Source of the DNA: Candidatus Cloacimonadota bacterium
GTDB taxonomy: Bacteria > Muiribacteriota > UBA6191 > JACPRK01
Length of the DNA: 41,262 nt
NCBI GenBank assembly: GCA_021772705.1
Contig: JAJFLN010000763.1
Span: forward strand, 1-41,262
Direction of reading: 5' to 3'
Position numbers and translations under genes: made by a program. This document shows positions 2,923 through 39,048 of the stretch, piece by piece; the stretch's first letter is position 1; every line of letters starts with the position of its first letter. Below the pieces are notes generated by a model that was not told where the DNA came from, did not search any database, and was given only the letters and a program-made list of their open reading frames with translations.

Positions 2923-4455
2923 TCAAACAGCTCTCAGAATGTCCTCTGAACGGGGCGGTTTGCAGTCCCGTAGCAGTCCAAGCACATTTGTCTCCGAGCC
3001 CAGGGAGGTCAGGCTCGATGCTGCCTCCTCCCTGACTCTTCTCTGCAACTCCTCCACATCCTCCGTGCTTGCCTGGCTGATGGCGTGGACGATGTCGTTT
3101 CTCAACCGGCGCAAGACCGTCAGGTTCAAACGGGAGCCGTCAATCAGACTCCCCTTGGGCACCAGATTCAATTGCTGCCTTCCATGTTGAACCCTGGACT
3201 CCCTTCCTTCCAGCAGCCTCTCCAGGTCCGACAGGGAGCAGCTGGGGACGACACTGGTGTCGAATCCCTGTCCCACCTTCACCTCTCGCAGGAGGATCTT
3301 CTGACGCAGAAAGTAGCGCCAGCAGAGTTCCAGAGCGTTGACGAGGGTGAGAAACGCACCGTTCCGCTCGTTTGCGCGCAACTGAACCGCTGCCGCCGTG
3401 ATCCGTGTCAACAGCAGGCCCCGCAGATGGTTCTCGTCAGCCAGGAAGAGCTCCTGGGTGAACTGGGCACTGTCTCGACGATCCAGCGCCAGGCGAACGA
3501 GCGCCCGGGCTGGATGATCCCGTGCCAGGTCTGGCGGCAGGGGCAGGCTTGCCAGTCGGCTCACGTCCAGCCCGAGCCAGGCCTCCAGGAATCGGCTCCA
3601 ACCAAGCACGATGGCAACCTTCGACTCTGTATCCCGGGTGAAGTATCCGGCCACACCGGGACTCCTCAAGGCCTGGTCAATACGTTCCAGCTGAAGAGTG
3701 GCTGCTCGATAGTCTCCGCGGTCAAAGAGGCTGCAAGCAGAATCGAACTGGCTGATCTGGAAGATCTCGAAGGGATCCGGAAGCTGCCGAAGATACTCGG
3801 AGCCGGTCATGGGCTTGCGCTTACGGGGATCAAAAACCTCGAAATCGGTGTAGAAGATGCTCGCCCCCGGCAGCACCATGCCACTGGTGAAGGAACCGGC
3901 CACCATGGGCTTCTTGGATCCCGAAACGTCAATGGCGATCTCCCGAGCTGCCGTGTCCTCCACCTGCTTCCGGACGGCCTGAAAGGTCTCGGCCGGGTCC
4001 GAACCAGCCACGGCGGTCCAGTGGATGCTGGGCGGCTCAGACCAGACAGTGTGGCCCCTCTCATATGCCTCCAGCAGAAGAACGGCCAGCTTCTCTGCCA
4101 GCTCTCCCGTCTCGGTCGTGGCCAGAATTGCAATGTAGGGGGTTCGCACGGACGTCAGGAAGAGACAGACTGGCTCGTAAGAGAATCCGAGGAGTGAGAT
4201 GGCGAGGTCGAAGTCGCGATCCGGCACGTCTGGATCTCGAACCAGCCTGGGGTAATCGGCTCGCAGCAACGTTCGATAGACGGAGCCCACCAGGGGAAGG
4301 ACTTCACGAACATAGAACGAGACGCCGTCCTCGCTCCTGGCGGCCTCGGAGCGTTCGTCCTCGAGGCGTGCCAGATCAGCGAAAAGCTGATTCCAGTCCG
4401 TCTGATCATCCAGACCTTGCAGCCGATCGATCCGATCTTGAAGCTGAAGCTCCAT
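2923..4455 (-). CDS. CARF-HEPN protein (Csm6/Csx1 family cOA-activated RNase candidate)
   Basis: N-terminal CARF signatures: ISLLGFSYEPVCLFL (the LGxSxxP strand), YIAILATTETGE, and the ligand-pocket motif IDVSGSKKPMVAGSF (compare D-[IVL]-T-G-G-T-K-x-M-S). C-terminal HEPN Rx4-6H motif in LRRLRNDIVHAIS. GGAGG RBS upstream of the ATG. Confidence 0.7.
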   Translation of the reverse strand: MELQLQDRIDRLQGLDDQTDWNQLFADLARLEDERSEAARSEDGVSFYVREVLPLVGSVYRTLLRADYPRLVRDPDVPDRDFDLAISLLGFSYEPVCLFLTSVRTPYIAILATTETGELAEKLAVLLLEAYERGHTVWSEPPSIHWTAVAGSDPAETFQAVRKQVEDTAAREIAIDVSGSKKPMVAGSFTSGMVLPGASIFYTDFEVFDPRKRKPMTGSEYLRQLPDPFEIFQISQFDSACSLFDRGDYRAATLQLERIDQALRSPGVAGYFTRDTESKVAIVLGWSRFLEAWLGLDVSRLASLPLPPDLARDHPARALVRLALDRRDSAQFTQELFLADENHLRGLLLTRITAAAVQLRANERNGAFLTLVNALELCWRYFLRQKILLREVKVGQGFDTSVVPSCSLSDLERLLEGRESRVQHGRQQLNLVPKGSLIDGSRLNLTVLRRLRNDIVHAISQASTEDVEELQRRVREEAASSLTSLGSETNVLGLLRDCKPPRSEDILRAV

Positions 4456-16461: not shown

Positions 16462-17169
16462 ATGAGCCAGAAGATCGACAGGAACCAGGTTGAGGAATGT
16501 GTATCGGAACTCCAGCGTGTTCGACGAGAGATCGCCGAGAACCGGCGGCGGCTCGAGGCCTGTGACTCCAGCCAGACGGAAGCCAGGAACATGCTGGAGA
16601 GTCACGGTCGCAAGCTCGCGGGGGCCGACAATCGGCTCTGTACGGAGATTGTGACTATCTGCTCCGGACTGCTTCGGGGACTTGGATGGCGCCGAATTCG
16701 CCATGCTGGCCTGATAGACGACTGCATGATAGCAGCCTTCTCCGAGGTGCTGGCCAGGGTGGAGAAGCTCAAGATCCCCCGGGCCTTCCTGTCCTACCTC
16801 ATCCGTTCGTTCAAGAACGAGCAGGGGCGCGTCATGGCAGGTCTGGCCGCTGACGCCTCGAACCAGGTCCCTCTGGGAGAGTCCGTCCATCCATCGGGCC
16901 GGCCTCCTCAGGAGGACGTCGAGGATGCCGATGAGAGGGCCCGGAATCTGGAGAAAATCCAGATTCATGTCGGCTGCATTCCCAATGAGAAGTGGCGAGA
17001 GGCCTTCGATCGGTACTACCTCCGAGGCGAGGACTACTCCACCGTGGCAACGAGAATGTCGATTCCCAAGGGGACGGCCAAGGCCTGGAGTTTCCGGGGC
17101 AAGGAGGCTCTCAGGGAGCACCTGCAAGTCCTGGTCTCCAAGGGGGCTGGCGGTTGCGCTCCGCCGTGA
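16462..17169 (+). CDS. ECF-type (group 4) RNA polymerase sigma factor with an N-terminal coiled-coil extension
   Basis: GGAAGGGAG RBS before ATG 16462. Region-2-like GLIDDCMIAAFSEVL ... FLSYLIRSFKNE. Region-4 HTH WREAFDRYYLRGEDYSTVATRMSIPKGTAKAWSFRGKEALREHL. Confidence 0.7.
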   Translation: MSQKIDRNQVEECVSELQRVRREIAENRRRLEACDSSQTEARNMLESHGRKLAGADNRLCTEIVTICSGLLRGLGWRRIRHAGLIDDCMIAAFSEVLARVEKLKIPRAFLSYLIRSFKNEQGRVMAGLAADASNQVPLGESVHPSGRPPQEDVEDADERARNLEKIQIHVGCIPNEKWREAFDRYYLRGEDYSTVATRMSIPKGTAKAWSFRGKEALREHLQVLVSKGAGGCAPP

Positions 17170-17319
17170 GGTTCCCCGAGGTCTCAAGAAATGGTCAGCT
17201 TCCCTGGACGGCGACCCGCCCCCGGGGCTAGCCTGTCCCGTCGAGAAGCCCGGCCGTGCGAACTGCAGCCGCAAACCGGCTGAACGGATCGCCTCCGAAT
17301 TGGAACCAGGGAGGAACCT

Positions 17320-18867
17320 TTGAGGCAGCAGGCGAACATCCTACTGAAAGACCCCGTTGACTATCAGACAGCCAGCACAGGAGATACGATATTCATCAGC
17401 ACCCTGGGAATGTCACCTGGCACAGTGGTCCAGGCCCTCTATAGCATTCTGGAGCCGGAGACAGACGGGAAGGAGACAGGCCGTGTAGACTGGGTGGACC
17501 AGATCGTGACTGGCGTCAGCGCCCCATCAGCCTGGCCTGATGAGGACCGCATTCAGACAATACTGGAGACGGGCGAGGAGTATAGTATTCAGTCGGCGAA
17601 GCAGATTGCAAAGCTGCTTGACCAGGCCCAGTCATTCGGCCTTCTTGAACCCGATTCTGAGCCGAAGACGCTCATCAAGGACGTGACCGATTCGAACTGC
17701 ACGAGCGTTCGTGACGCCCTGCTCACTCATGTTGAGCGACGGCGGAACGAGATTGGTCCCGATGGCCGGATCATCTTCGACTTCACCGGTGGAAGGGTCG
17801 GCATGTCCTACTATCTGGGTTTTGCGGCTCAGTTGCTGGGGGAAGCCAATGATCAACTTCTCTATACGAATGTAAACCGAGGCAAGGGCGACTACTTGCT
17901 CTCCACGCCGGGACCGAGACAGGGGGAAACCCCTCGGAGCCGACCGGAAACGACCTGGATTCCGAAGGGCCGGGACCATATCTTCCGGGTTCCATTTCCG
18001 CTGGCACGCATTCCCTTCGTGAAGTCGATGGTCGCTTTGAACAATGGCAGTTCCATCGTCCAGGGCGCTCTGCATTTCGACACCATCATGAGTGAACTGG
18101 AGTCCTACACTGCCCTGGGAATCTTTGCCCGGGGGGTCGCCCACGAGGGCCTCAATCTGATCCGAGAACTGCGAGAACTGGGCGGGAGCCGGCCGGCGGC
18201 AGCAGAAGAGACCCGGGCGTTGCCGGAACAGCTGGGCAGCAAGGACGCGCTCTTTCGCCTCCGGCGCCTGGAAGCCTACCTGACGGCTTTTGATGTACTG
18301 GCAGGCAGGAACCCAGGCGGTGCAGTTCCAGAAGCCAGAGGCCCCGTGAACCTGTACGAGATGATAAAGGCGGAAGCTGACTGGGTACGAGACGACATCG
18401 CTCCCGATCTGAAGGTGGAAATCAAGGTGGCCGAGGAACTCAGACCCTCGATCCACGCCGAGGCACTTCAGCTGGCGATCATCCTGTTGATGAAGAACGC
18501 TGCTCAGGCCGCCCGCAGGGCCGCCCCGCCGCGGATTGTTGTGATTGCCGAGGCCCATCACGGTTACATGTCACTCTCGATTGACAACAATGGCCCTCCT
18601 TTCCCTCCGGAACTCTTGCCCTACGCGAAGAAACTGATCCGGCCGGTCTCGGTACTGGCGGCGATGCGTGCGGCCGAAGCCGGCCAGCAGAGGGAATCGG
18701 AGAAGCGGCGAGGTGTCGGTTTAGCAATCGCCAGTCAGCTACTCGAGGCTCTCTGGGCGGGCCAAGAGGTTCATGATGAAGACAGACGGCCAATGTCGCC
18801 ATTGGAGATCGAGAGCGAGGGTTCCCTGTGCGGAGCTCGATACCGGCTGTTGCTGCCTTTGGAGTGA
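17320..18867 (+). CDS. CARF-domain sensor histidine kinase (CARF - DHp - HATPase_c)
   Basis: TTG start preceded by a GGGAGG RBS. CARF motifs: DTIFISTLGMSPGTVVQALYSIL and IIFDFTGGRVGMSYYLG. The candidate DHp H-box is ARGVAHEGLNLIRELREL. HATPase_c boxes: N-box LQLAIILLMKNAAQA, G1 IDNNGPPFP, G2 GVGLAIASQLLE. Confidence 0.6.
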   Translation: MRQQANILLKDPVDYQTASTGDTIFISTLGMSPGTVVQALYSILEPETDGKETGRVDWVDQIVTGVSAPSAWPDEDRIQTILETGEEYSIQSAKQIAKLLDQAQSFGLLEPDSEPKTLIKDVTDSNCTSVRDALLTHVERRRNEIGPDGRIIFDFTGGRVGMSYYLGFAAQLLGEANDQLLYTNVNRGKGDYLLSTPGPRQGETPRSRPETTWIPKGRDHIFRVPFPLARIPFVKSMVALNNGSSIVQGALHFDTIMSELESYTALGIFARGVAHEGLNLIRELRELGGSRPAAAEETRALPEQLGSKDALFRLRRLEAYLTAFDVLAGRNPGGAVPEARGPVNLYEMIKAEADWVRDDIAPDLKVEIKVAEELRPSIHAEALQLAIILLMKNAAQAARRAAPPRIVVIAEAHHGYMSLSIDNNGPPFPPELLPYAKKLIRPVSVLAAMRAAEAGQQRESEKRRGVGLAIASQLLEALWAGQEVHDEDRRPMSPLEIESEGSLCGARYRLLLPLE

Positions 18868-18938
18868 ATTCTCTCACTGTACGGCGGGAGGGAAGGGCGT
18901 GAGTTGCTTCCCGCCAATCCCTTCTGATTGGGTATCCG

Positions 18939-19865
18939 ATGGCTGCGGAAAATCTACCACCACTGAGGCATGCTCGACAAGATACCAGGCCGTTGGCCTG
19001 GGTGCTCGGGCTTGTGGCGCTGGGCTGCCTCATCCAGTTTGTCACGTCGTCGGCAGCCCGTCCTCCGTATCGGGCGCCTTCATACAGGCCCGGCAGCGCG
19101 CCATCAGGCGGCGTTCCGGCCAAGTCCGGTTCCCGCACGGCTCGACGTCCGTCTCCCCCGGTTTCGCTGCCTACCTGGCACGCCCCACGTGCGAAGCCTG
19201 CTGCGACTACCCGATCTGCCACCGACTCTCCCGTTGGAGCTCCGTCGGAGCGGTCACGCAGGCCTATGGCGAGCAAGACGACAAAGAAGATCTGGCCCGG
19301 TTCCCGCAACACCAGGGTAAGGACCGTTCTGGCGCCCGTACCACGAAGATCGGAGCCCGCGTCGGAGTCCAGAAAACGCCCCGGAGCCCGTAGTCTTCGA
19401 TTCGTCTCCCCCGCCCGGACTTACGCCGCCGTTGTTACCTCCAACCTGGTTCACTTCCGAATTCCGGCAGCCGGGAGAAGCCAGTGGGTGTGGAATGGCC
19501 AACACCTGGAGCACGGGGAACTCGAGTATGGCTGGGAAGTCGAGGTGACGGACCATCACGGCAGGGTCTACAGGATCGCCTGTTCGCGATTCATGAGAGC
19601 CGGAGAGCCCATGCGCCATGGGCGTCTCTCGGATCTGCTGCACGACGGCCGGGTCGATGTCTGGCGGGTTCTGGGGAGCAAGGAAGCAACCGTTAGCCGT
19701 CTGATGTTTCGAGTTACCGTCGACTCCGGGGATGTCATCCTGTGGTCGAATCACAGTCCAACAATTCGGCACCTCTTCGGAGGAAAGCCCCGAAGGGTCA
19801 TGCTTGGTGGCTTCACACCCTATCGTGGAGACTTCCGCCAGGCAGTCCGGATCAAGTACGACTGA
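18939..19865 (+). CDS. membrane-anchored protein with a Pro/Arg-rich linker and a C-terminal globular domain of unknown function
   Basis: N-terminal hydrophobic helix LAWVLGLVALGCLIQFV, then a low-complexity P/R/S/A-rich stretch, then a roughly 150-aa conserved-looking C-terminus. Confidence 0.5.
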   Translation: MAAENLPPLRHARQDTRPLAWVLGLVALGCLIQFVTSSAARPPYRAPSYRPGSAPSGGVPAKSGSRTARRPSPPVSLPTWHAPRAKPAATTRSATDSPVGAPSERSRRPMASKTTKKIWPGSRNTRVRTVLAPVPRRSEPASESRKRPGARSLRFVSPARTYAAVVTSNLVHFRIPAAGRSQWVWNGQHLEHGELEYGWEVEVTDHHGRVYRIACSRFMRAGEPMRHGRLSDLLHDGRVDVWRVLGSKEATVSRLMFRVTVDSGDVILWSNHSPTIRHLFGGKPRRVMLGGFTPYRGDFRQAVRIKYD

Positions 19866-20071
19866 GAGCGGTACGCTGCCCCAAGTGGTTCCCATGAAGT
19901 GACCCATCTGGAGTGCTCGCCCCCGCGACATTCCTGAAACCGGGGCTCCCGGCTCGGCTCATTCTTTGATGACGGCTTCATCGCCGACCCCAATCAGTCC
20001 ATGACCCGGGACCTGAACCCAGCTGGCTACCAATCTCGCTACGAGCCACTTCACCTGCAAAGGAGGCAATC

Positions 20072-20863
20072 ATGACTTCCCTCCAGATTCACATGCTGAC
20101 CTGGCCCACGATATTGACGGCTGCCGTCGGTCTGCTATTCGGGACAGTCTCGTCGGCGACGGGCTGCCTCTTTCTCCTCGCACTGTTCGTCGCCTATGGA
20201 AGCGGATTCAGAACCGTGCCGATCGGGCACGGAGCACTACTGGTTCTACTCGGAGTCCGGGTGCCGTCTGCCCATTTGGGGGAGGGACTGCTCTGGATTC
20301 CGCCCTATCCCATTGGAGATCTCCTGATCGTAGACCTGCGGGAGCAAACGTTGCCGCTCAGAGAACTAGTCTTTTACACGAAGGACGACATTCCGGTGCG
20401 GCTTGATGTGAATCTACAGTATCGAATCCTCGACATCTTCTGCTATTCCAATGCAGAGAGGGCCGTCGATGCTTTCCAGGCCGCCGTTCAGGACACTCTT
20501 CGTCGCACCGCATCATCCGTTCGGGCCCTGGAGCTTCCGGGGAACAGCGGAACAGCCCACAATCTCGGCCTGGTGAGGAACTCGGTCAACTCCGGCACGT
20601 TGCAGGACACATGTCGCCGCTGGGGATTGAGCCTGGTTCAGGCACATCTGACGAATCTTCGGCTGCCAGCCGCGATCGAAGCTGCCACCACAGCAGCGAA
20701 GCGCTCCGAGTATCTCGCCGAGATCGTCAGGAAGCTGGCATCAGAGCTGGGCATTTCGACGGAGCGCGCCCTGGACATGATTCAGGTCGACTTCGGCCAG
20801 ACTACCCGGAACATCATCGACGGCGACTTGCTTCGCAACCTGCTCGGTGGGGGTGCCAGGTGA
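20072..20863 (+). CDS. SPFH / Band-7 (stomatin-prohibitin-like) membrane protein
   Basis: AAAGGAGG RBS. N-terminal TM helix. SPFH core FRTVPIGHGALLVLLGVRVP ... LLWIPPYPIGDLLIVDLREQTL ... FYTKDDIPVRLDVNLQYRI. Confidence 0.75.
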   Translation: MTSLQIHMLTWPTILTAAVGLLFGTVSSATGCLFLLALFVAYGSGFRTVPIGHGALLVLLGVRVPSAHLGEGLLWIPPYPIGDLLIVDLREQTLPLRELVFYTKDDIPVRLDVNLQYRILDIFCYSNAERAVDAFQAAVQDTLRRTASSVRALELPGNSGTAHNLGLVRNSVNSGTLQDTCRRWGLSLVQAHLTNLRLPAAIEAATTAAKRSEYLAEIVRKLASELGISTERALDMIQVDFGQTTRNIIDGDLLRNLLGGGAR

Positions 20864-21031
20864 TGCCGGGTTGCTGGGGATAGCCGAGCCATGAGGGACC
20901 CGACGCCATTTGCTTCTCGTAGCACGGGAGGCTGCGCAGACCACGCCTTCGCCATTGTCGCGTGCAGCGAATTCCCTTTCGGACTGAGCGCTCATCTCCA
21001 CCGCAGCGGCGAATCCAGGTCCAGGGTTCGA

Positions 21032-21526
21032 TCAAGAAGTGGAGGAGGAACTCGAAGTCGACGGCAGTCGCTTCAGCGCGTCACCCAGCTTCCAGGGAGG
21101 CTCGCCTCGGACTTTCGCTTCCGCCACATCCTGACGGGTCGCATCGGGTCTACCCGATTCCCGCCGGAAGACACCCAGTTCCCGATTGCTGACCGTAGCC
21201 TGTACGACCTGACCGTCACCCCTGTCGATCTCGATGGCTTCTCGAGTCCCTCGCAGATCCTTCTTGGTGGCGGTCTTTCGGGACCCGGACTTTCCTGTCC
21301 TTGCCCGGCGCTTCGTCCTGACGCCACGCTTCGGTGCCGCAAGTGGGGTGGGCTTGATCGGAACGGCAACCGCAGGAGGGGTCTCCCGGCCCGCTTGACC
21401 TGTCGCCTCCAAGGCAACGACCTGCTTGTCGCCAACCAGTACTGAGAGAATGTCCCCGTCCGACATTCCCAGGCCACGAAGCGTGGCGATGGTGGATTTC
21501 ATGACTTCTCGTGTCTCTTGATTCAT
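21032..21526 (-). CDS. small basic (Lys/Arg-rich) hypothetical protein
   Basis: 164 aa. GGGAGG RBS 5 nt upstream of the ATG on the minus strand. The K/R-rich central segment suggests nucleic-acid binding. Confidence 0.45.
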   Translation of the reverse strand: MNQETREVMKSTIATLRGLGMSDGDILSVLVGDKQVVALEATGQAGRETPPAVAVPIKPTPLAAPKRGVRTKRRARTGKSGSRKTATKKDLRGTREAIEIDRGDGQVVQATVSNRELGVFRRESGRPDATRQDVAEAKVRGEPPWKLGDALKRLPSTSSSSSTS

Positions 21527-21872
21527 GGCTGCCTCCCGGACATCGACTCGATGGTCTCAGTCTACCATCCCGGAGCAGGTTGATTGACGAAGCGGCGCAA
21601 TTCCCGCCCTATAGGAGTGACAAAGGTGGGCCGATTTACATCGACTCCCGGCATCTATCTGGTATCCTGAAGAGGTTGTCGAGTAGGGATGCACGAAATG
21701 CAGCTCAGGGGGATGGGGAGGTCTTGGCATGAGGCGACCGACATCGAATGAAGTATGGGCGGGCCCGGTTGCCGTGAGGTCTTGGCTGACGGACTCTTTG
21801 TCGTTCCTGAGGGGTCCAGAGTGAGCTCGTGCGAAGCCCTGTAAGGCGGAGGCCGGGGGGGGAGGAAGACGC

Positions 21873-23276
21873 GTGAAGAAGTGGCTCTATCGTTACGAAA
21901 CCAAGGGGATCCAGTCCTGGATACTCGATAGTAATCTGATGCGTGATCTGGCCGGGGGAAGCGCGCTGGTAGAGAGCCTGACCGACGAGGCCGAGAAACA
22001 GGCGAAGATCGCCGGGGCTTCCGAGATCGTCCAGGCCACCTCGGGCTCGATGACCGCTGTCTTTCCCGACCAGAACTCTCTACAGAAGTTCGCGTCCACC
22101 TGGCCCATGGTTGTCGAGTGCCGGGCTCCCGGACTGCATCTGGTCCAGGCCTGGACGCTCGAGTCCGAGAGCCTCGGTAAACTGTTTCGCAAGCTTGGTC
22201 ATCGGCGTAACCGGGTACACGTCAGCGGCTTCGAGGCAGGTCCCTGGGTGCTGCGATCCGGTCGCTCGGGCCTTCCTGCCGTCCCCACACCGCCCGATAT
22301 TCGGAGCAAGGCTCGCATGACTGCCCTGGACGAGGCCGCGGTCGCGAAGGAGCGGGCACGAAACATGCAGGAAGCGGTGGGCGCTGTGACGGGGGGGCGA
22401 CCGTGGGGCGACTTCGAGCAGGAGGTGGATGACTGGATAGAAGGTCCGGTTGGCGTCATTCACGCCGACGGCAGCGGGGTGGGCCAGCGGCTCATCAACC
22501 TGGAGAACGACTACGAGAAGTTGAGAGCGTTCTCCGAGGCGTTGAAGGAAGCCACCCGGGATGCGACGGCCCGTGCTCTGGAAACACTGCCTGCAACCAG
22601 GAAGCTGCAGGCCCGGCCAATCGTCTCGGCTGGTGATGACCTCACCTACATAGTGCCCGGGGCGAGGGCACGGGCATTCGCGACCCGGTGGCTGCTTGCC
22701 CTGGAGGACGAGACGAAGAAGCGTGAAAGTGAGCTGGGAGGTGGGCTGTGGGGAGGGGCAGGAATCGCGTATGTCCACCGCCGTTTCCCCTTCTCCCGTG
22801 CCTATGAAATGGCCGAGAGTCTCTGCAAGGATGCCAAAGAGGCCGTGCGAGGGCGCCAGCAGAGTGTCATCGCCTTTCGGAGGCAGACCGCATCTCTGGC
22901 CGACAACGATTCTCCTGGTGGGATTGCCTGGGTGATCGAGGCCGGTGAACCGGGCTCGCCGCTGGATCGACTGGTTGAAGTCTTGAGAGAGCTTCCGAGA
23001 GGGCCTCTCCGAACCTGGCTGACCCTGTTCGAGCGAGGCGACGACGTCCGGGCGAGGCAGTTGTGGCAGCGGACGCAGGAAGTGGCGGACACGAAGGTCT
23101 GGGACCGTTTCCGGAGTGCCCTGACCGACGTCGGCGCAGACCCGAATACGGGCCGACTCGACACCGCCACCACGGGCAGGGCCGTCGCTCTCGGGGGAGT
23201 GACGACGCCCATCCGGGACGGACTTGCCTTGCGCCACATCGAAAAGGAGGTTCAGTCATGGCCTGCCGCCGATTGA
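21873..23276 (+). CDS. compact Cas10/mCpol-like palm-domain protein (GGDEF-type nucleotide cyclase fold), with no HD domain and no zinc finger
   Basis: GTG start after a GGGAGGAAG RBS. N-terminal YETKGIQSWILDSNLMRDLAGGSALVESL (the Cas10-type GIQxFI ... GGS motif). Metal-binding VIHADGSGVG. Cyclase motif IVSAGDDLTYI (GGDD-like). Post-motif GGAGIAYVHRRFPFSRAYEMAESLCKDAKEA. Lacks the Cys cluster expected for a Cas10 treble-clef domain. Confidence 0.6.
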   Translation: MKKWLYRYETKGIQSWILDSNLMRDLAGGSALVESLTDEAEKQAKIAGASEIVQATSGSMTAVFPDQNSLQKFASTWPMVVECRAPGLHLVQAWTLESESLGKLFRKLGHRRNRVHVSGFEAGPWVLRSGRSGLPAVPTPPDIRSKARMTALDEAAVAKERARNMQEAVGAVTGGRPWGDFEQEVDDWIEGPVGVIHADGSGVGQRLINLENDYEKLRAFSEALKEATRDATARALETLPATRKLQARPIVSAGDDLTYIVPGARARAFATRWLLALEDETKKRESELGGGLWGGAGIAYVHRRFPFSRAYEMAESLCKDAKEAVRGRQQSVIAFRRQTASLADNDSPGGIAWVIEAGEPGSPLDRLVEVLRELPRGPLRTWLTLFERGDDVRARQLWQRTQEVADTKVWDRFRSALTDVGADPNTGRLDTATTGRAVALGGVTTPIRDGLALRHIEKEVQSWPAAD

Positions 23277-23980
23277 GATTCTCCCTGTCGAGCTACTGGC
23301 ACATCGGCTCCGGAGTAGGCGCCGAGGCCGTGGCCGACGCTCAGGTTCTGCGAGACGGCGACGGGTTACCGCTCGTTCCCGGCCGAACGGTGAAGGGACT
23401 GTTGCGAGAGGCGATGGAACTGGCCACTCGATCCGGACGAGTCGCGGCCGATCGTCCGGTTCGCTGGTTTGGTTCCTGCTTGCCGGGAGTTCCTCCTCCT
23501 ACGCCAGGCCAGGAAACACCTGAAGTGGGAGATGTACAGGAGGTCCGCCTGGAAGAGGGTCGGTTCTCCACCCACGAGGGAGCACTCTGGTTCGGGTCGG
23601 CCTGTCTTTCCGACGACTGGCGCCAGTGGGCACGGAGGCTCAAGAAGAACTCCGTCAGTTCCAGCTCTTCGGAGAGCGAAAACAGCAGTGAAGCGGGCTC
23701 AAATTCGCAACAGAACGAACTTGATCTTTTCACGTTGCAATCACTCTTCACCTATGTCGCTTCGACCGCCATCGACTCTCGTGGAGTCGCCCGCGAGCAC
23801 TCGCTGCGCGTCTCGGAAGTCACGGTGCCCATGGATCTCACCTGCCAGGTTCGGGGGCCTGATGACGATCTCTCCTGGGTAGAGGACCTCCGGGCGAGCC
23901 TTCCGCTGCTGCGAGCGCTCGGAAAGCGACGAAGCCGTGGCTATGGGCGGGTCGAGGTGACCATGGAGGAGGACTCATGA
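23258..23980 (+). CDS. RAMP superfamily protein (Cas5/Cas7-like)
   Basis: ATG 23258 follows an AAAAGGAGG RBS and overlaps the upstream gene by 19 nt. RAMP motif LPLVPGRTVKGLLREA. C-terminal G-rich loop LGKRRSRGYGRVEV. Confidence 0.7.
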   Translation: MACRRLRFSLSSYWHIGSGVGAEAVADAQVLRDGDGLPLVPGRTVKGLLREAMELATRSGRVAADRPVRWFGSCLPGVPPPTPGQETPEVGDVQEVRLEEGRFSTHEGALWFGSACLSDDWRQWARRLKKNSVSSSSSESENSSEAGSNSQQNELDLFTLQSLFTYVASTAIDSRGVAREHSLRVSEVTVPMDLTCQVRGPDDDLSWVEDLRASLPLLRALGKRRSRGYGRVEVTMEEDS

Positions 23981-25422
23981 GCCGGTTTCATCGCATCGAA
24001 CTCGACCTGGAGCTGCTGACCGATGTCTGTCTCAGCACTTCGAATCGCACTCTGGGGGAGGCGCAGACGCATGCCTTTGTCCCGGGACGAACGCTCTGGG
24101 GTGCAGCGGCTTCAGCCGCCTATCGATCCGGTATGTCCGATCAGGAAGCGTTCCGGCTGTTCCACCGGGGAGCGGTTCGAGTCCTCGACGCCGTTCCCAT
24201 GGCCGATGGCGCCCGGGCTTACCCGGCCCCGCGAAGCTGGCACGAGCCGAAAGCCAGGGTTAAACCTGCCGGAGCGGCGGCGTCAGATCAGGTGTACAAC
24301 TTTGCTCTCGAAGCCGCACGGAACGGGCAGGAGGGAGTGCAGTGCAAGCCTCTCGGGGACCACTGGGTAACTCCGGATCGGAGGTACGTGGAAGTGACGA
24401 GCACGTACTCTCTGCGCACAGCTATCGGCTCCGCGGGACGAGCTCGGGAGGGGCTTCTCTTCGGTCTCCCGGTGATACTGGCGGGAACAAAGCTGGCCGG
24501 CGCCCTGATCGGTCTGAAGTCTGACGTGGAGCAAGTGGCGGCCCTTCTCACGGATCGGGAGCTCTACCTGGGCCGCTCGCGGAACACCGAACTCGGGCTT
24601 GTGCGCGCCAGCCGCCGAGACGGAGGTTTCAGAAGCCTGGCCCACGGCCAGGGGCGGGTGACATCAGTCTCTTTTCTCTGCGTGTCACGATGCATCCTTC
24701 GCAGACCGGACACGGGGGAGCCGACATTGATTCCCTTCCCTGAAGCCTTCGGACTGGACTCATTCTGGACAAACGACGAAGCCTCGAGCTTCGTTCGCAC
24801 GGTTCGTGTCACTCACTTCAACAGCAAGCGCTGCCGCCCGGAACGGGAACGCTATGCTCTGGAGCGTGGATCGGTGCTGACGTTCTCCTCCGGCTCCTCC
24901 GATGTGGACCTGGGAGCGCTGGTGGACTTCGTCGAGGGCGGTGTCGGCGAGCATCTGGGAGAAGGCTACGGCGACGTCGTGGTGGCTCCCGAATGGCTGA
25001 CGGTGGGGAACCTCACTTTGGCCGCGGAGTCGCAAACTCCAGCAAGTTCCGGGAAGGCCCCGAGCGATGAGTTGTACGCCTGGGCCTGCCAACGGGCTGG
25101 CCAGAGACGGCTTGCCGTCGACCTCTACGAGTCTGCCTGCGATGCTGCCCGAGGGCTTCAGTCCAATGGCGTACCGGCGGCTCAGTGGGGAACCCTGCAT
25201 CGCATGGCGCGTCAGGCCAGGTTCCGGGCCGACGGCAGTCCACTTCTGCAAGAGGTGCAGGAGTACCTGAAATCGGGAAAGAGGGGTATCGCATCGGTGT
25301 GGCGAAGTGCCAGGAAGCCGCTGCTGGAAGCTTGCGAGAAGCGAAAGAGTGAGGAATTGCCGCTGTTTCTGGAACATCTCGCGAGTGCCTGCATGCGGCC
25401 GGCGGGGGGGGATGACCGATGA
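23977..25422 (+). CDS. RAMP superfamily protein with a C-terminal extension
   Basis: ATGA-coupled to the gene upstream. RAMP motif HAFVPGRTLWGAAASA. G-rich loop EGGVGEHLGEGYGDVVV. Confidence 0.65.
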   Translation: MSRFHRIELDLELLTDVCLSTSNRTLGEAQTHAFVPGRTLWGAAASAAYRSGMSDQEAFRLFHRGAVRVLDAVPMADGARAYPAPRSWHEPKARVKPAGAAASDQVYNFALEAARNGQEGVQCKPLGDHWVTPDRRYVEVTSTYSLRTAIGSAGRAREGLLFGLPVILAGTKLAGALIGLKSDVEQVAALLTDRELYLGRSRNTELGLVRASRRDGGFRSLAHGQGRVTSVSFLCVSRCILRRPDTGEPTLIPFPEAFGLDSFWTNDEASSFVRTVRVTHFNSKRCRPERERYALERGSVLTFSSGSSDVDLGALVDFVEGGVGEHLGEGYGDVVVAPEWLTVGNLTLAAESQTPASSGKAPSDELYAWACQRAGQRRLAVDLYESACDAARGLQSNGVPAAQWGTLHRMARQARFRADGSPLLQEVQEYLKSGKRGIASVWRSARKPLLEACEKRKSEELPLFLEHLASACMRPAGGDDR

Positions 25423-26822
25423 CCGACCATCCCTGGCTGGAGTTCGAACTGGGTCTGGTGACAATCGAGCTGGAATCCGCTTTCGCCGTCAGCACATCAG
25501 AAGGGGACAACCTCTTCGATTCCGTCTTCGTCACCGATGCCAACGGGCTGCCCTCCATTCCGGCGGAGAGTCTGGCGGGCATTCTCCGACATGCCCTGGC
25601 GGGTCCGAATGATCCGAGCACTGACCCCATCTGTCGTCAGGTGTTCGGGTATCAGGAGAAGGATCAAGGAGATGCCTCTCGCGTGCGTTTGAGCTTCGCC
25701 CAGCCACACGGGTGCACCGATCGACCTGTCCCCTTTCGAGGTGCATCCCTGGATGATAAGGTGCTCGAATTCCTGGCCGCCGGGGTCGGTCGAGATCACG
25801 TGCGAATCGGCGGGCACGGTGTCGTGGATGGGCGAGGCAAGTTCGACGAGTTGCTCGTTCCGGCAGGGGCGCGGTTCACCTTCGAGATGTGTGTCTCCAG
25901 TCAGAGCCCGTGCCGTTTGGCAGATCTGGTTGCCCAGCTGGGCCGGGTCGAGGTTCGCATCGGCCGGGGAACCCGCCGTGGCCTGGGACGCTTCCGTGTC
26001 GAACGGGTCCGATCAGTCAAGCTCGACCTGACGAAACCGGAGGATCTGAACCGACTGGACCGACTGCCTGTTGCTCTGGAGAAGCTGGCGGACTCGAAGG
26101 AACTGACTGAAGAGAAGACCGATGGGCAGCTTGAACAAGAGGGATGGCTTCAGGCCGAAGTAACCCTTCAACCGATTGGTACCTGGATTGTGGGTAACGG
26201 GGTTCCTACCGGCCGTGAGCCTCCCCGGTCCGATGAGGGCACCTGGGACCGGCTGCCATTGACGGAGCATCGGATAGTCTGGGACGGACCGGGTGATGCA
26301 AGTCAGGGTCGCGTGGAGGAACGGGCACCCTTTCTCATCCCGGCAAGCTCCGTCAAGGGGGCGCTGCGTCATCGTACGGCCTTTCACGCTCGCCGGCGAG
26401 AGGGCATCTGGCTGGATCCGGAAACCGGGAGCGTTGACGAAACGCCGGAGGAGAGGGAGTTGTTCGGGGAGGTTCGAGGTGGAACGGAAGGTCGTCCTGG
26501 CCAGGTCCAGATCTCGGACGTCTATATCGCCAAAGAAGTTCCCTATGTTTCATTGCAGCATGTGAGCAGCGACCGCTTTACCCAGGGCCCCATGGATCAC
26601 TTGCTGTTCGACGAGGTCGTTCTGGGCAAGACCCGTTTCACCCTGGACATCGCGGTCCAGGAGCGAGATCTCTCGGAGGTGGCCCGTCGAGCCCTGGACG
26701 ACGCGTTGAATGACCTCTGCGCCGGGCGATTGGCCTTCGGCGCCGGACGCGGACACGGGCGCTTCAAGGGCAAAGTGCAATGGAAGAACGACCGGGGCCT
26801 GATCGCCCGGGAGGTCGCATGA
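25419..26822 (+). CDS. fusion of two RAMP (Cas7-like) domains
   Basis: First RAMP motif LPSIPAESLAGILRHAL with G-loop RIGRGTRRGLGRFRV. Second motif FLIPASSVKGALRHRTAF with terminal G-loop FGAGRGHGRFKGKV. ATGA coupling at both ends. Confidence 0.7.
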   Translation: MTDHPWLEFELGLVTIELESAFAVSTSEGDNLFDSVFVTDANGLPSIPAESLAGILRHALAGPNDPSTDPICRQVFGYQEKDQGDASRVRLSFAQPHGCTDRPVPFRGASLDDKVLEFLAAGVGRDHVRIGGHGVVDGRGKFDELLVPAGARFTFEMCVSSQSPCRLADLVAQLGRVEVRIGRGTRRGLGRFRVERVRSVKLDLTKPEDLNRLDRLPVALEKLADSKELTEEKTDGQLEQEGWLQAEVTLQPIGTWIVGNGVPTGREPPRSDEGTWDRLPLTEHRIVWDGPGDASQGRVEERAPFLIPASSVKGALRHRTAFHARRREGIWLDPETGSVDETPEERELFGEVRGGTEGRPGQVQISDVYIAKEVPYVSLQHVSSDRFTQGPMDHLLFDEVVLGKTRFTLDIAVQERDLSEVARRALDDALNDLCAGRLAFGAGRGHGRFKGKVQWKNDRGLIAREVA

Positions 26823-27256
26823 CAGACATGGTGGTTGAACTGGGCGCCTGCTACTGTTCCCTGAAACGGGAGAGAACCGGAAGCACGTCGAAGCAAGAAG
26901 AAGCGTGGCGGTTCCTGCCTTCCGATGGCCAGGGTGTAGTGGTGCTCTCCGACGCAGTTCGCCGGTTCAAGCCGGGCGTTTCAGAGGGCCTTCTGGTCGA
27001 GGCTGATGTTACGCAGGGCTCGATGACGACCCTGGTCCGGATGAGTCCCGATGGATGGCAGGCCTGGCAATGGCGAGAAACGGACGGCAGTTCACACTGT
27101 TATGTGGAGAGGGACTACCTGTCTTCCGAACCCTCGCGAGACGCTCCTTCCCTCCTACGTTATCGTCACTACTGGACTCTCGAAGAGGATGATGGGATTC
27201 GAGTCTGGCACCCGGTCGGCTCCCGTTTCTGTGGCTTTGTGGAGGATGTCAAATGA
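26819..27256 (+). CDS. small protein of unknown function (by position a candidate small-subunit analogue)
   Basis: 145 aa. ATGA-coupled between the RAMP genes. No recognisable motif, and it does not look like an obviously helical Cas11. Confidence 0.4.
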   Translation: MTDMVVELGACYCSLKRERTGSTSKQEEAWRFLPSDGQGVVVLSDAVRRFKPGVSEGLLVEADVTQGSMTTLVRMSPDGWQAWQWRETDGSSHCYVERDYLSSEPSRDAPSLLRYRHYWTLEEDDGIRVWHPVGSRFCGFVEDVK

Positions 27257-29496
27257 TCTCGAGAATCACAGCGCCCTACGGCTTCGTTCCTCTGAGTTCC
27301 ACCGTGGTTTTCCCCGACTGGCTCAGGCTGCGGGAGTCCCTGCCGCCTCCACTGCATGACGTTCCCTTTCAGGAAGGGCTGTGGGGAACAATGGAGCTGG
27401 AGATCACTGCCGAGACGCCCATCTTCATCCGAGGAACCGGCCCCGATACTTCCCAGCCTTTTCAACTCGACAGCAAGACTTACGGAATACCCGGAACCGC
27501 ACTCCGGGGCGCCCTGCGCAACGTGGTGGAGATCGCCACGTTTGGCCGGTTCCAGCGCGTCAACGACCATCGCTACGCCGTACGCGACCTCCATAACCGG
27601 GAGCTGTATGGACGGCACATGGCCGAGATCGTCAGGAACCAAAAGACCGGAAAGGGCGAACCCATGCCCCTGGTCAATGCAGGCTGGCTCACCCGGGAGA
27701 AGAACGGCAAGCAGGGCCATCGCTACCGTATCGAAGTTTGTGATTTCGCCAGGATCGAGTACCGCCCACTGGAGGAACTGGCTCGCACCCGGGGCATCAA
27801 GAACTTCCGGCCTGGCGAGAAGCAGAGTTCGGTGAACAAGTACAACAAGTGGGGTAACGCAAGCCTGGACGTCGAGGTGAATGCAGACCTTCGCCGGCCT
27901 GACTTGATTGCTGGGCGAACGATGCTGTCCCGGTTCGGGCTGGCGACGCCCCACGCGGATGGAACCAGAGGAACCATCGTGTTCACGGGTCAGCCTTCGC
28001 TCTGGAAACCCGACCCGACAGGTAAGCGCCGGCGAGCAGGCAACGCGAAGCATCACGATTTCGTGTTCCTGTCAGGAGGAGCACACCGGAGCCTGGAAGT
28101 GCAGGATGGCACCTTCAGGGACTTCGAATTCGCCCACAGCGACCGGGGACAGCAGAATCGGCTGGGAAGCTCCCAGACACCGAATGAAGAGTGGGGATAC
28201 TGGCAAGAGAGACTGAATGGGGGAGCGAGAGTCCCGGTCTTCTTCTTGACCCGTGACGACGGACAGCTGCGCGCCATGGGCCTGGCCATGATGTTCCGGC
28301 TCAGTTACGATCGATCCATCGGCGATGCCATCGATCACGTTACCCCGGATCATCGAAGACCGGAGGCCGGCCTGGACTTTGCCGAGGGGCTGTTCGGTAC
28401 CGTACGCGATTCGAAGAGCTCCGAGAGTGGCGGCGAGTCTCCAAGAGATCGTTCGGCCCTCGCCCTGAAGGGACGAATCGGTCTCTCCCATGCTGTGGCG
28501 ACTGAATCGACACAGCCCGTTGCCGCTGCTGTGAAAGTGGTTCTCGGTTCACCCAAGGCTAGCTACTACCCAAACTATGTCCAGCAGGCGCGAGGAGGCG
28601 GTTACCGGACCTGGATGGACCCGGACGCAACCCCGCGCGGCTGGAAGCGCTATCGCACGATGACCCGCACCTGGACGCCTCCTTTGCCGACCAGTGGAGA
28701 TGGACGCTCCGTGAACATCGAGAAGGTCGGAACGACTTTCCGGCCTCTCCCGGAAGGCACCCGATTCGTGGCCCACATCGATGTGCACAACCTGCTTCCC
28801 CAGGAACTGGGAGCGCTTCTCTGGGCGCTCGATTTTGGTGGTGACGATCGGGCACGTCACGCACTGGGCATGGCTCGCCCCCTCGGCTACGGCCGCTGCC
28901 GGTTCTCCGTCAATTCCCATGATGTGCGGAGAATGGACGGCAGCCAGGCGGAACTTGATGAGTGCCGTCGCCTCTTCGAGACCTATATGGAGGAGCAGGT
29001 CCCGGGCTGGAGGAGCTCTCCCCAGATCCAGGAACTTCTCGCCCTGACCCATCCGGTCGATCCCGACCAGGCGCACTATCAACGGCTCGATCCGGGCCAG
29101 CGAATCAACGAGTTTGTTGATGCCAAGAAGGCCGGCCTCTCCTTGCCATCCGTCAGCGCAGCGGCCACATCCATCTGGCCCGCCGCCAGGGAAAGCCAGC
29201 GTTTCTCCACCTCGGCTCCACATCGTGGAGGGGGAGCACCTCGGTCGGCTTCCATCTCCGCTGGAGGCGGCTCCGCTGGCTGGCCCGGTAAGCGTCGAGA
29301 CGACGTGATAGAGGTCGAGCTGACCGGTTTGACGAAGAAGAAGAGATGGCGCTGCACTGTCGTCGGTCATGCAGGTACGGTGGGGTTCATCACCGAGGGC
29401 GAGGCTCCGCCGGAACCCAAGGAGGGACAGAAGCACAAGACCGTCGTGATCAGCGGAAACAACCCGACTGGTCTGGTCCTTCGCTGGAAACCATGA
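27253..29496 (+). CDS. large RAMP protein (Cmr1/Csm5-like Cas7) with a roughly 200-aa C-terminal extension
   Basis: RAMP motif TYGIPGTALRGALRNVVEIATFGRF. G-rich loop LGMARPLGYGRCRF. ATGA-coupled to the upstream gene. Confidence 0.65.
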   Translation: MISRITAPYGFVPLSSTVVFPDWLRLRESLPPPLHDVPFQEGLWGTMELEITAETPIFIRGTGPDTSQPFQLDSKTYGIPGTALRGALRNVVEIATFGRFQRVNDHRYAVRDLHNRELYGRHMAEIVRNQKTGKGEPMPLVNAGWLTREKNGKQGHRYRIEVCDFARIEYRPLEELARTRGIKNFRPGEKQSSVNKYNKWGNASLDVEVNADLRRPDLIAGRTMLSRFGLATPHADGTRGTIVFTGQPSLWKPDPTGKRRRAGNAKHHDFVFLSGGAHRSLEVQDGTFRDFEFAHSDRGQQNRLGSSQTPNEEWGYWQERLNGGARVPVFFLTRDDGQLRAMGLAMMFRLSYDRSIGDAIDHVTPDHRRPEAGLDFAEGLFGTVRDSKSSESGGESPRDRSALALKGRIGLSHAVATESTQPVAAAVKVVLGSPKASYYPNYVQQARGGGYRTWMDPDATPRGWKRYRTMTRTWTPPLPTSGDGRSVNIEKVGTTFRPLPEGTRFVAHIDVHNLLPQELGALLWALDFGGDDRARHALGMARPLGYGRCRFSVNSHDVRRMDGSQAELDECRRLFETYMEEQVPGWRSSPQIQELLALTHPVDPDQAHYQRLDPGQRINEFVDAKKAGLSLPSVSAAATSIWPAARESQRFSTSAPHRGGGAPRSASISAGGGSAGWPGKRRDDVIEVELTGLTKKKRWRCTVVGHAGTVGFITEGEAPPEPKEGQKHKTVVISGNNPTGLVLRWKP

Positions 29497-29639
29497 TCGA
29501 TCGACTCCGGATCGCCGGCTTCAAGTCCTTCGGGCCCGGTGGAAATCCTGGAGGCCATCTCGCGACCTTAGAACAACCCCACAGACGATATCATGGCAAC
29601 CAGCGCCACCCACATCGGGTCAGAGCTGCTGAGCATGGC

Positions 29640-29990
29640 GACTCGTGCGATGCCTCGGGCTGTACGGTTTTCCTGGCATCTCTACTCCCACTCCTCCTGA
29701 TCCTGTTCGGACTGAGGATTCTCGCCACTCCGGTGTTCGGCCCCCCCGGGGACTGCTTGGCATCGGTGGCCGGTCGGGCAGGGGCGGCAGCCTGGCGAGT
29801 TTCCTGGCCTCAGCCATGGTCTATCGCGATGGAACGATCGGGACCGGCGAGCAGGCAGGGCTCGCCGACGCTGGAGCAGGTCGCCAGTCTGGCGAGTCCG
29901 TACACTGCGTGGGAGAGTCGGGAACAACGATGGAACGGCTGGTGCTGGTGAAGTCGATGAAACCTCGGTTCGCTGACTGTACTCGGGACA
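29640..29990 (+). pseudogene. degenerate 5' fragment of a group II intron, including a frameshifted RT N-terminus
   Basis: Nucleotide homology to 36010-36520, with a deletion of about 215 bp. Encodes ...GSPTLEQVASLASPYTAWES..., which in another frame reads NNDGTAGAGEVDET (compare the RT motifs LEQVASPANLYAAWERV and NKGAAGVDG). A possible GTGCG 5' end lies near 29643. Confidence 0.4.
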
Positions 29991-30006
29991 GGTGGAGCCA
30001 GGGCGC

Positions 30007-30726
30007 TCAGGGAGTCGACTCACTCACCGAGTCGTCGAGAGTGCGGTGGAAGAGGCACAGTTGACCAGGTGCCTGGTTGCCGCGTGCCATGAATTCATGG
30101 GCGGCCCTCATTACGGCAGCGCCCGGGTTGACGTTCTCTTGTCCCCGCAAATCCGCAATCACCCACATCATCTTTGCTGGATCATAGACGATGAACAGCG
30201 AGTGCAAACTCCTTGGGTTTTTCGTTGAGACTTCGTAGAGGAACCCGTCACCGGAGAGCACTTTCTGAAGATACTCTTCGCGATACGAGTCATTCGCCAG
30301 GCAGTTGTGCATGGCGTGCCCGTGCGCCCTTATCTCCGATACGTTTAGCAATGGCCGAAAGCGATACTCCCGAAGGCACGGGCTGGCGTCGTAAGGCAGA
30401 TCCTCGCGACCAGAAAGTGGCGGTTCGGGAAAGCGCCATGCCTCTTGTTCCAGGTCTTTCGAACGTCGTCTCAGAATGTTCTCCCCTTTCCCTGTTCGCC
30501 CGATGGCGGTTGGCGCTGGGTGGCGACCTGTCGCCGACTTCTTGGCGAGCACGAAAAGACCGGCAAGCGAGCATCTTGCTCTTCTTGCCGGGGACGGAAG
30601 GCGGGCGAGTAGGCGGGCCGTCAGCCATCGTTGCACGGCGGTCAGAGCCGCCGTTTTACTGTTCACCAGACTGAGATTTCGCACCCTCCTCGTCACCGGG
30701 CCTCCGGTTCTCGTCGGCCCTGGCAC
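30007..30726 (-). CDS. hypothetical protein (start uncertain; the Arg/Pro-rich N-terminus may be spurious)
   Basis: 239-aa ORF. The C-terminal half (EIRAHGHAMHNCLANDSYREEYLQKVLSGDGFLYEV...) looks globular. No confident family assignment. Confidence 0.3.
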   Translation of the reverse strand: MPGPTRTGGPVTRRVRNLSLVNSKTAALTAVQRWLTARLLARLPSPARRARCSLAGLFVLAKKSATGRHPAPTAIGRTGKGENILRRRSKDLEQEAWRFPEPPLSGREDLPYDASPCLREYRFRPLLNVSEIRAHGHAMHNCLANDSYREEYLQKVLSGDGFLYEVSTKNPRSLHSLFIVYDPAKMMWVIADLRGQENVNPGAAVMRAAHEFMARGNQAPGQLCLFHRTLDDSVSESTP

Positions 30727-35381: not shown

Positions 35382-35476
35382 CCTGTGTAACGAGGGACGC
35401 GTTTGTGGCGGATGATGGCCGGACAGAGACGGCAAATCGAAAGAGTTTCAAACCTCTGTAACGAGGGACGCGTTTT
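35382..35476. repeat. two-copy 23-nt direct repeat, period 71 bp
   Basis: cctgtgtaacgagggacgcgttt at 35382-35404 and cctctgtaacgagggacgcgttt at 35453-35475, differing at one position. They are separated by a unique 48-nt segment, inside a noncoding gap of about 480 bp. Confidence 0.3.
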
Positions 35477-38886: not shown

Positions 38887-39048
38887 TTATGTGGATATCC
38901 ACATAACTCGACTTATGCCGAGTCGCGAATTATGCCGAGCAGGCGCCGTGATCGCTGTGTCTGCTGGGTTTTCGGCGTGAAAGCTCGGCATAATCCGGCT
39001 GCTTGATCAAGACTCTCTCTTTCATTTCTACGGAAAGGGAGAGTGATC

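Follow-up and report, generated by a model that had tools for sequence, protein, structure and literature searches.

The gene at 21873..23276 encodes a 467-amino-acid Cas10, a shorter orthologue within the known type III-D architecture and an ordinary HD-less member of the III-D family. According to an AlphaFold2 model, it is a compacted pair of palm domains followed by a C-terminal helical domain. It is very probably a two-palm Cas10 whose cyclase site is intact and probably active. The window, that is, the whole stretch of DNA analysed here, has 41,262 bases and is the entire contig.

The cas10 gene and its domain architecture

A GGAGGA ribosome-binding site stands about 6 nt in front of the cas10 start codon, which is GTG, and the start position of the product is common to all homologues. 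Every motif quoted in the original prediction was found in the 467-aa product: KGIQSWIL (aa 11-18), GGSAL (28-32) and ADGSG (198-202), and on the palm 2 side SAGDD (252-256), GIAYVHRRFPF (297-307) and DAKEA (320-324). The protein scored 36.8 bits against the Pfam Cas10-Cmr2_palm2 profile (cut-off 27). E-values were 2e-60 and 1.5e-58 against the PADLOC Cas10 profiles and 5e-48 and 2e-40 against the Cas10d profiles, and 96 homologues were collected, the best with an E-value of 1e-164. Together the Pfam score, the PADLOC E-values and the homologues put the cas10 signal far beyond chance, and the proposal of a Cas10-type cyclase was borne out. The gene and its parts, with domain borders as predicted, are as follows.

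21873..23276, plus strand: cas10, 467 aa, large subunit of a type III-D effector, without HD domain or zinc finger
21873..22208, plus strand: palm 1 (aa 1-112), degenerate, first element at residue 4, no preceding domain
22209..22448, plus strand: 80-residue linker (aa 113-192) in the place of the D2/zinc-finger domain
22449..22883, plus strand: palm 2, the catalytic cyclase domain (aa 193-337); Pfam PF22335 covers aa 193-324
22461-22472, plus strand: H197-A-D199-G in palm 2, with the upstream Asp of the metal site
22626-22640, plus strand: S-A-G-D255-D256 in palm 2, the GGDD-type motif
22884..23273, plus strand: C-terminal helical domain, D4/Cas11-like (aa 338-467), with a helical bundle at aa 360-462 in the model

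The AlphaFold2 model was built on 68 homologues and had a mean pLDDT of 92.2 and a pTM of 0.91. In this model palm 1 consists of strands at residues 4-11, 51-56, 59-64 and 89-96 and helices at 23-46, 67-84 and 97-112. Q14, S30 and G58 are its invariant residues across the 68 homologues. Its hairpin keeps the invariant Gly58 and has no Asp or other acidic pair, so palm 1 is degenerate, like that of other Cas10s. The linker contains a single modelled helix (154-164). The C-terminal domain has helices at 363-371, 376-387, 391-404, 407-419 and 446-462, and its R400 is invariant. When the protein was aligned with the type III-Dv Cas10 (8s9t_C), 421 of 467 residues were matched. This is more than the number of residues N-terminal to the helical domain, so the alignment must extend into that domain.

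The original prediction had left it undecided whether the protein contains one palm or a pair, and structure prediction answers with two palms plus the helical domain. This high-confidence model refutes the reading as a cyclase with one palm, of mCpol or GGDEF type, that only happens to adjoin RAMP genes, and we find that reading hardly credible. The mCpol identity was rejected as a candidate in its own right: the protein has two palms and a helical domain with a RAMP operon downstream, and mCpol (9mnr_A) aligns over 107 residues only.

The absence of the HD and zinc-finger domains, also part of the original prediction, is supported throughout the family. An HD domain occurs in many Cas10s but not in all. 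Palm 1 begins at residue 4 in all 68 members, so that an HD domain is absent and would have no space. No HD dipeptide was found in the Cas10 and no N-terminal extension in the 68 members. A CxxC motif occurred in 0 of 68, and the Cas10 itself has two Cys in total. A hidden HD domain or zinc finger was considered as well and ruled out, since every member lacks both an HD dipeptide and a CxxC.

Conservation was assessed in an alignment of 68 sequences with 22-60% identity. H197, D199, G204, D255, D256, G297, P306 and K322 are invariant in 68/68, and G254 is kept in 67. The Asp pair of the GGDD-type motif, D255/D256, which had been put forward as the catalytic signature, is thus retained in every homologue. 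At the first position of GGDD, 42 sequences have Gly, 24, the present Cas10 among them, have Ala, and two have Ser. The AGDD form is among the variants seen in Cas10s beside known effectors and is therefore considered likely active (PMC11229360). The phmmer alignment places D255/D256 at the GGDD of 8s9t_C, and after a 17-residue tag offset they would correspond to D308/D309 of the III-Dv protein. Mutation of D308/D309 in the III-Dv complex abolished cOA-dependent activation of Csx1 (PMC11026444). Family members range from 452 to 581 aa in length, with a median of 467 aa in the close clade.

The downstream effector operon and related loci

cas10 heads a co-directional operon in which the gene ends overlap. 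The operon genes that follow cas10 are listed below.

23258..23980, plus strand: cas7, 240 aa; PADLOC Cas7_IIId 1e-35; syntenic in 16 loci
23977..25422, plus strand: csx10-type cas5, 481 aa; PADLOC Cas5_IIId 2.1e-42 over aa 7-471
25419..26822, plus strand: cas7-2x, a double Cas7 fusion, 467 aa; PADLOC Cas7_IIId 7.5e-82
26780..27256, plus strand: conserved gene of about 150 aa (158 aa here), in the position of csx19 in III-Dv
27253..29496, plus strand: cas7-insertion, a TIGR03986-family RAMP, 747 aa; PADLOC 3e-124

Pfam scores mark three of the genes after cas10 as RAMPs, and a fourth can also be recognised, the csx10-type Cas5. The original prediction of a RAMP operon headed by cas10 agrees with these matches (Cas7_IIId, Cas5_IIId, a double Cas7_IIId and TIGR03986). 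The cas7 ATG at 23258 follows AAGGAGG and gives a 19-nt overlap with the end of cas10. In an independent assembly and contig the same cas7 position was called, with the same 240-aa product. Cas5 matched TIGR02674 Csx10 weakly (2.6e-5), and the profile of its orthologues matched the Cas5 segment of the Cas7-Cas5-Cas11 protein 8s9t_A (1.6e-5). Its C-terminal extension of about 130 aa looks helical and may be a fused Cas11. Cas7-2x has two RAMP stretches in Pfam, and its top PDB match is 8s9t_D, 'Cas7-2x'. Cas7-insertion scored 283.8 bits against TIGR03986 (4.8e-84; cut-off 161.35) and matched 9wxh_D and 8s9t_E in the PDB. The gene of about 150 aa is kept at the equal position in 11 related loci with 42-54% identity; csx19 itself is frequent in III-D but not universal. 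The 158-aa protein gave no match to Csx19, Cas11, the 8S9T chains or any other protein by phmmer, profile search against the PDB, NCBIfam and PADLOC. A scan of 17000-30200 for promoters and terminators gave results no better than shuffled sequence.

The six products of the module, Cas10 included, add up to about 2,560 aa. The original prediction had described the effector as heavily reduced, and this description is not apt: the module is a full six-gene type III-D set, comparable to the III-Dv complex of 332 kDa (PMC11026444).

The genome scan for related loci used an alignment of 32 sequences, the 68-homologue alignment being too diverse. The six genes stand in the same order in each of the 18 related loci that contain the operon. 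These loci come from metagenome-assembled genomes of Vulcanimicrobiota, Burkholderiales, Polyangiales, Acidobacteriota and others, and many of them are clearly CRISPR loci. In five more distant relatives (L001 and L013-L016) cas6 lies immediately 5' of cas10, and cas1-cas2 are present in L013 and L014. Several loci carry WYL regulator and Cas_APE2256 CARF genes, the latter in L001, L014 and L016. CRISPR arrays were found with 21 repeats in L016, 16 in L010 and 5 in L011, and the repeat is 37 nt long in both L016 and L010. The stem and the 3' GAAAC handle of the L016 repeat (...CCCCGTCGTTGAGGGGATAGAAAC) are equal to those of the Synechocystis III-Dv repeat quoted in PMC11026444. The two closest relatives, at about 60% identity, have no adjacent cas6, and in one of them a DDE transposase takes its place.

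Guide source, CARF proteins and proposed function

TRF, a repeat-finding program, a scan of k-mer spacing and Rfam all detected no CRISPR array in the 41-kb contig, and the Rfam scan of the window gave no match of any kind. A solitary conserved repeat 3' handle, GGGGAYWGAAAC, was sought in the window and not found. The sole spaced repeat is a 23-mer in two copies at 35382 and 35453, which is unlike the repeats of the relatives. When the window was searched by tblastn with the cas6, cas1 and cas2 proteins of the relatives, only noise was obtained; one 60-aa match (E 0.002) near 4778-4933 lies in no ORF. As the contig has no cas6, cas1/2 or array, this copy may be without a guide.

The window has the appearance of a mobile defence island, with two tyrosine recombinases and, inserted beside an RT fragment, a MULE transposase. 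Also encoded are a TraG/TrwB/mad8-like ATPase, an AAA ATPase that resembles IetA and a PcfJ-like protein. The module might be read as an orphan or decaying copy on a mobile island, with a Cas10 that is intact but idle for want of cas6 or an array. The 41 kb without array, cas6 or cas1/2, the cas6 directly upstream of cas10 in the more distant relatives, and the recombinases, transposase and TraG/TrwB-like ATPase nearby are consistent with such a history. Yet the six effector ORFs are full-length, their ends overlap and the family-invariant residues are kept, and the absence of an adjacent cas6 in the two closest relatives suggests a stable arrangement. Moreover, array-less type III loci are common (PMC12669027), and many of them use crRNAs made elsewhere (PMC12669027, PMC11229360); the contig, besides, is only a fragment of the genome. 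We consider decay unlikely. The missing guide source is not taken as a sign of it.

Two CARF-domain proteins are encoded in the window, and REC-like proteins are listed with them.

2923..4455, minus strand: Csx1/Csm6-type CARF-HEPN protein, 510 aa; PADLOC CARF1--CARF_HEPN 1.3e-26, Csx1/Csm6 4.9e-23
6054-7241, minus strand: REC-like protein; Response_reg 24 bits, below the cut-off
8553-9497, minus strand: REC-like protein, by motifs and pairwise similarity
17320..18867, plus strand: CARF-histidine kinase fusion, 515 aa; Pfam Cas_NE0113 and HATPase_c; PADLOC Csx1/CARF5

The CARF-HEPN protein has an RNDIVH (Rx4H) motif near its C-terminus, was missed by Pfam, and is likely, by its profile matches and this motif, a cOA-activated RNase. 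Its gene lies 17 kb from cas10 on the opposite strand. The CARF-histidine kinase, separated from cas10 by three ORFs, is a candidate second cOA receptor.

The closest solved homologue of the present Cas10 makes cOA, and there are CARF proteins nearby; for these reasons, and from its conserved residues, the protein is probably an active cOA synthase. Given the CARF proteins, the lack of an HD domain and the intact cyclase motifs, cOA signalling is the only plausible enzymatic output. We propose that this Cas10 is the large subunit of an effector of the III-Dv/III-D1 type, reduced to its signalling part, with its small helical C-terminal domain docking on the Cas7 backbone; without an HD nuclease, nucleotide signalling would be its sole enzymatic output. 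The crRNA-loaded complex of Cas10, Cas7, Cas5(-Cas11), Cas7-2x, the subunit of about 150 aa and Cas7-insertion would bind a complementary foreign transcript, and this binding would release Cas10. With a pair of metal ions bound by H197-x-D199 and D255-D256, Cas10 would then polymerise ATP to cyclic oligoadenylate. CARF proteins of the same island would respond to this cOA: the CARF-HEPN RNase of Csx1 type would be activated, and possibly also the CARF-histidine kinase. The fold and number of domains, the conserved catalytic residues, the gene context and the tie of the family to CRISPR arrays in relatives are shown by the analysis. In this scheme we infer the cyclase activity, the ring size, the stoichiometry of the complex, the responding CARF protein and the source of the crRNA.

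Cas10 could also be active and make a signal other than cOA, such as SAM-AMP, as in CorA-linked III-B and III-D systems, or another nucleotide product. The product of a Cas10 is not readable from sequence, alternative Cas10 products are known, CorA occurs in some III-D loci (PMC12669027), and a different acceptor site might result from the AGDD variant and the very compact linker. However, no CorA-type protein was found among the window ORFs scanned with Pfam and PADLOC, the window has two proteins with CARF domains, the canonical class of cOA sensor, and Csx1 activation is known for the closest solved homologue. Such a signal appears quite improbable.

The strong reduction of the protein and its superficial resemblance to the reductive subtypes III-G, -H and -I would fit a Cas10 that serves only for the assembly of an RNA-cleaving Cas7 complex. 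Those subtypes, however, have inactivated Cas10 palm motifs and no CARF/SAVED partners (PMC12669027), whereas here all 68 sequences keep the metal-binding Asp residues and CARF genes are found in the window, with Cas_APE2256 genes in the three relatives named above. We regard a purely structural role as highly improbable, and cOA synthesis remains the preferred reading.

The CARF-histidine kinase was compared with bona fide kinases. The H-box His275 (FARGVAHE), N393, G425 and G465/G467 are invariant in the alignment, and the N, G1 and G2 boxes are intact. Its AlphaFold2 model is of moderate quality (pLDDT 71.9), with a Rossmann-like fold in the N-domain, a hairpin for DHp and a CA domain modelled with confidence; the DHp-CA fold matches the cores of HK853, CpxA, ZraS and CusS. 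A word-indexed search of 5.8 billion proteins returned no relatives, and an exhaustive HMMER search of 1.84 billion representative proteins returned only two, with 43% and 38% identity. One of them, P0099, lies beside a type III-B Cmr locus and overlaps a 528-aa gene with the REC-like opening RVLVIDDE...VVVLDYHF, which resembles the window ORF 6054-7241 (pairwise E 7e-5). The other, P0098, overlaps a homologue of the window ORF 8553-9497 (E 3e-11). Both relatives are translationally coupled to homologues of REC-like genes of the window. The Pfam REC assignment was below threshold for 6054-7241, and the others had no match. The partners may be called REC-like, weakly, on motifs and pairwise similarity only.

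A tentative possibility is that a cOA-sensing CARF-kinase phosphorylates the REC-like proteins 6054-7241 and 8553-9497 in a phosphorelay, the module perhaps being mobile and array-less with crRNAs supplied in trans. RNA-guided detection would then feed a two-component system, an output so far undescribed for type III CRISPR. The rarity of the fusion, the III-B Cmr locus beside one relative and the coupling of both relatives to REC-like homologues speak for it. We regard this phosphorelay as a lead and not as a result, the REC calls being weak. No description of a CARF-histidine kinase effector was found in the literature within the incomplete coverage of our search. If the kinase responds to cOA, type III systems would gain a phosphorylation output beside nucleases, proteases, deaminases and pores.

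Comparison with known type III systems

The novelty implied by the original prediction was overstated. A short HD-less Cas10 is the rule in III-D, AGDD is already catalogued and CRISPR profiles match strongly; judging by the strong PADLOC matches, existing profile sets for CRISPR proteins already cover this family. Most III-D Cas10s lack the HD domain, and that of III-Dv has a large truncation and nevertheless makes cOA (PMC11026444). An HD domain was found in only 3% of III-D Cas10s (PMC11229360). The published type III survey by Hoikkala kept only Cas10s of at least 500 aa (PMC11229360). With this minimum the present clade and its ancillary genes would have dropped out, and the ancillary genes are probably under-sampled. 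The gain for Cas10 itself is modest, and the wider locus matters more. In this family the type III large subunit is down to about 455-480 aa, with an 80-residue linker between the palms and neither HD domain nor zinc finger, and it has lost neither palm and none of the catalytic residues. For structural or diagnostic studies of cOA synthesis, such a compact Cas10 offers a handy minimal scaffold.

When compared to the III-Dv Cas10 of Synechocystis sp. PCC 6803 (8S9T chain C; PMC11026444), the present protein lacks about 90-110 residues (467 aa here, 575 aa in the deposited chain, tag included). The loss is spread over the N-terminus, insertions in palm 1 and the linker, and the tail, and the motif is AGDD here and GGDD in Synechocystis. 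The genes follow the III-Dv order with one difference: here cas7 and cas5 are separate, and there they form part of a single cas7-cas5-cas11 fusion. Similarity of the small subunit to Csx19 of III-Dv is undetectable. Unlike the Synechocystis III-Dv locus, this contig has no cas6, adaptation genes or array.

The III-D1 Cas10 of Saccharolobus solfataricus (SsoCsm, 8BMW chain K) has 829 aa with additional domains, and its effector is a multi-copy Cas7 assembly, whereas here there is a single-copy, fused Cas7 set. Canonical Cmr2/Csm1 proteins of III-B and III-A have 700-1,000 aa (for example P. furiosus Cmr2 lacking its HD domain, 4H4K chain C); they carry an HD nuclease at the N-terminus and a D2 domain that is rich in Cys and binds zinc, and the present protein has neither. 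In contrast to mCpol, the minimal CRISPR polymerase (for example Panoptes OptS, 9MNR), which has one palm, lacks Cas5/Cas7 partners and is not RNA-guided, the present protein has two palms in the model and belongs to a complete effector operon.

Like the present Cas10, those of III-G, -H and -I have undergone reductive evolution, often in loci without arrays or adaptation genes. The two reductions differ in what they spared: the three subtypes have inactivated palm motifs and have lost the cOA pathway, with III-G and III-H keeping an active HD domain, whereas the present system has given up the HD domain and retains the cyclase, with CARF genes beside it in the window.

CARF proteins and neighbouring genes

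A gene fusing a CARF domain to a histidine kinase lies upstream of cas10 on the same strand, with an SPFH/Band-7 gene between the two. On the minus strand, the window encodes a CARF-HEPN protein and an operon of unannotated proteins.

2923-4455 (-): Csx1/Csm6-type CARF-HEPN, 510 aa (PADLOC, 1.3e-26)
4867-9497 (-): operon of unannotated proteins, notably ORFs 6054-7241 and 8553-9497
17320-18867 (+): CARF-histidine kinase fusion, 515 aa, with a Cas_NE0113/Csx1-like CARF and a complete histidine-kinase core
18939-19865: 308-aa ORF flanking the SPFH/Band-7 gene; N-terminal half Pro/Arg-rich, C-terminal half beta-rich
20072-20863 (+): SPFH/Band-7 protein with N-terminal hydrophobic segments

The H-box His275 of the CARF-kinase is conserved, as are its N, G1 and G2 boxes, and the protein is a candidate that may act as a cyclic oligoadenylate (cOA)-sensing kinase. 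A search of 1.84 billion representative proteins gave only two relatives; the one at L017 has a type III-B Cmr locus beside it. The literature searched, whose coverage is incomplete, yielded no description of a CARF-histidine kinase effector.

Two proteins of the minus-strand operon carry receiver-like motifs at the N-terminal start (RVMIVDD...LVLMDLMF and VVIHD...LIVTDNAM); the match of 6054-7241 to Pfam Response_reg is sub-threshold (24 bits). Each CARF-kinase relative shows translational coupling to a homologue of one of these two genes: of 6054-7241 at L017:408-1994 (pairwise E 7e-5), and of 8553-9497 at L018:1325-1756 (E 3e-11). The CARF-HEPN protein contains the motif RNDIVH and has no match in Pfam; its gene is separated from cas10 by 17 kb and runs in the other direction. 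The SPFH/Band-7 gene and the 308-aa ORF were found in none of the related loci, and the beta-rich half of the latter gave no matches.

One large-scale type III survey retained Cas10 proteins only if they had at least 500 aa (PMC11229360). The close clade of this Cas10 family, with a median length of 467 aa, would have been excluded, so that its ancillary-gene repertoire has probably gone uncatalogued so far.

crRNA supply and mobile-element genes

No CRISPR array, cas6 or cas1/2 was found in the whole window (1-41262). cas6 is also absent beside cas10 in the two closest Cas10 relatives (L020 and L021), in one of which a DDE transposase occupies its place; cas6, cas1/2 and arrays were found among more distant relatives. 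Several genes of mobile-element and defence-island type are present in the window, together with a short direct repeat.

11299-13659 (-), 1110-2879 (+), 9822-10325 (+), 30007-30726 (-): TraG/TrwB- or mad8-like ATPase, IetA-like AAA ATPase, DSP-PTPase-type phosphatase, PcfJ-like protein
35382-35404 and 35453-35475: 23-nt direct repeat CCTGTGTAACGAGGGACGCGTTT, present twice at a spacing of 71 nt, the copies differing by one mismatch
36364-36846 (+): short reverse-transcriptase fragment
36865-38505 (+): MULE-family transposase, directly after this fragment
39043-41183 (+): two adjacent tyrosine recombinases

The 23-nt repeat is unlike the CRISPR repeats seen in related loci.

Effector subunits compared with III-Dv

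Two effector genes were compared with the Synechocystis III-Dv complex.

23977-25422 (+): csx10-type Cas5
26780-27256 (+): conserved ~150-aa gene (158-aa ORF) between cas7-2x and cas7-insertion

The ~150-aa gene recurs in 11 related loci (42-54% identity), and many Trp residues of its product are invariant. No similarity of the product to Csx19 was detected, and comparison with PDB, NCBIfam and PADLOC gave no match; the gene's position is the one held by csx19 in III-Dv. The Cas5 segment of the III-Dv Cas7-Cas5-Cas11 chain matches the csx10-type Cas5 except for its C-terminal ~130 aa. No separate cas11 gene was recognised, save this ORF as a possible filler of the role, and for that reason the Cas5 tail may represent Cas11 in fused form.
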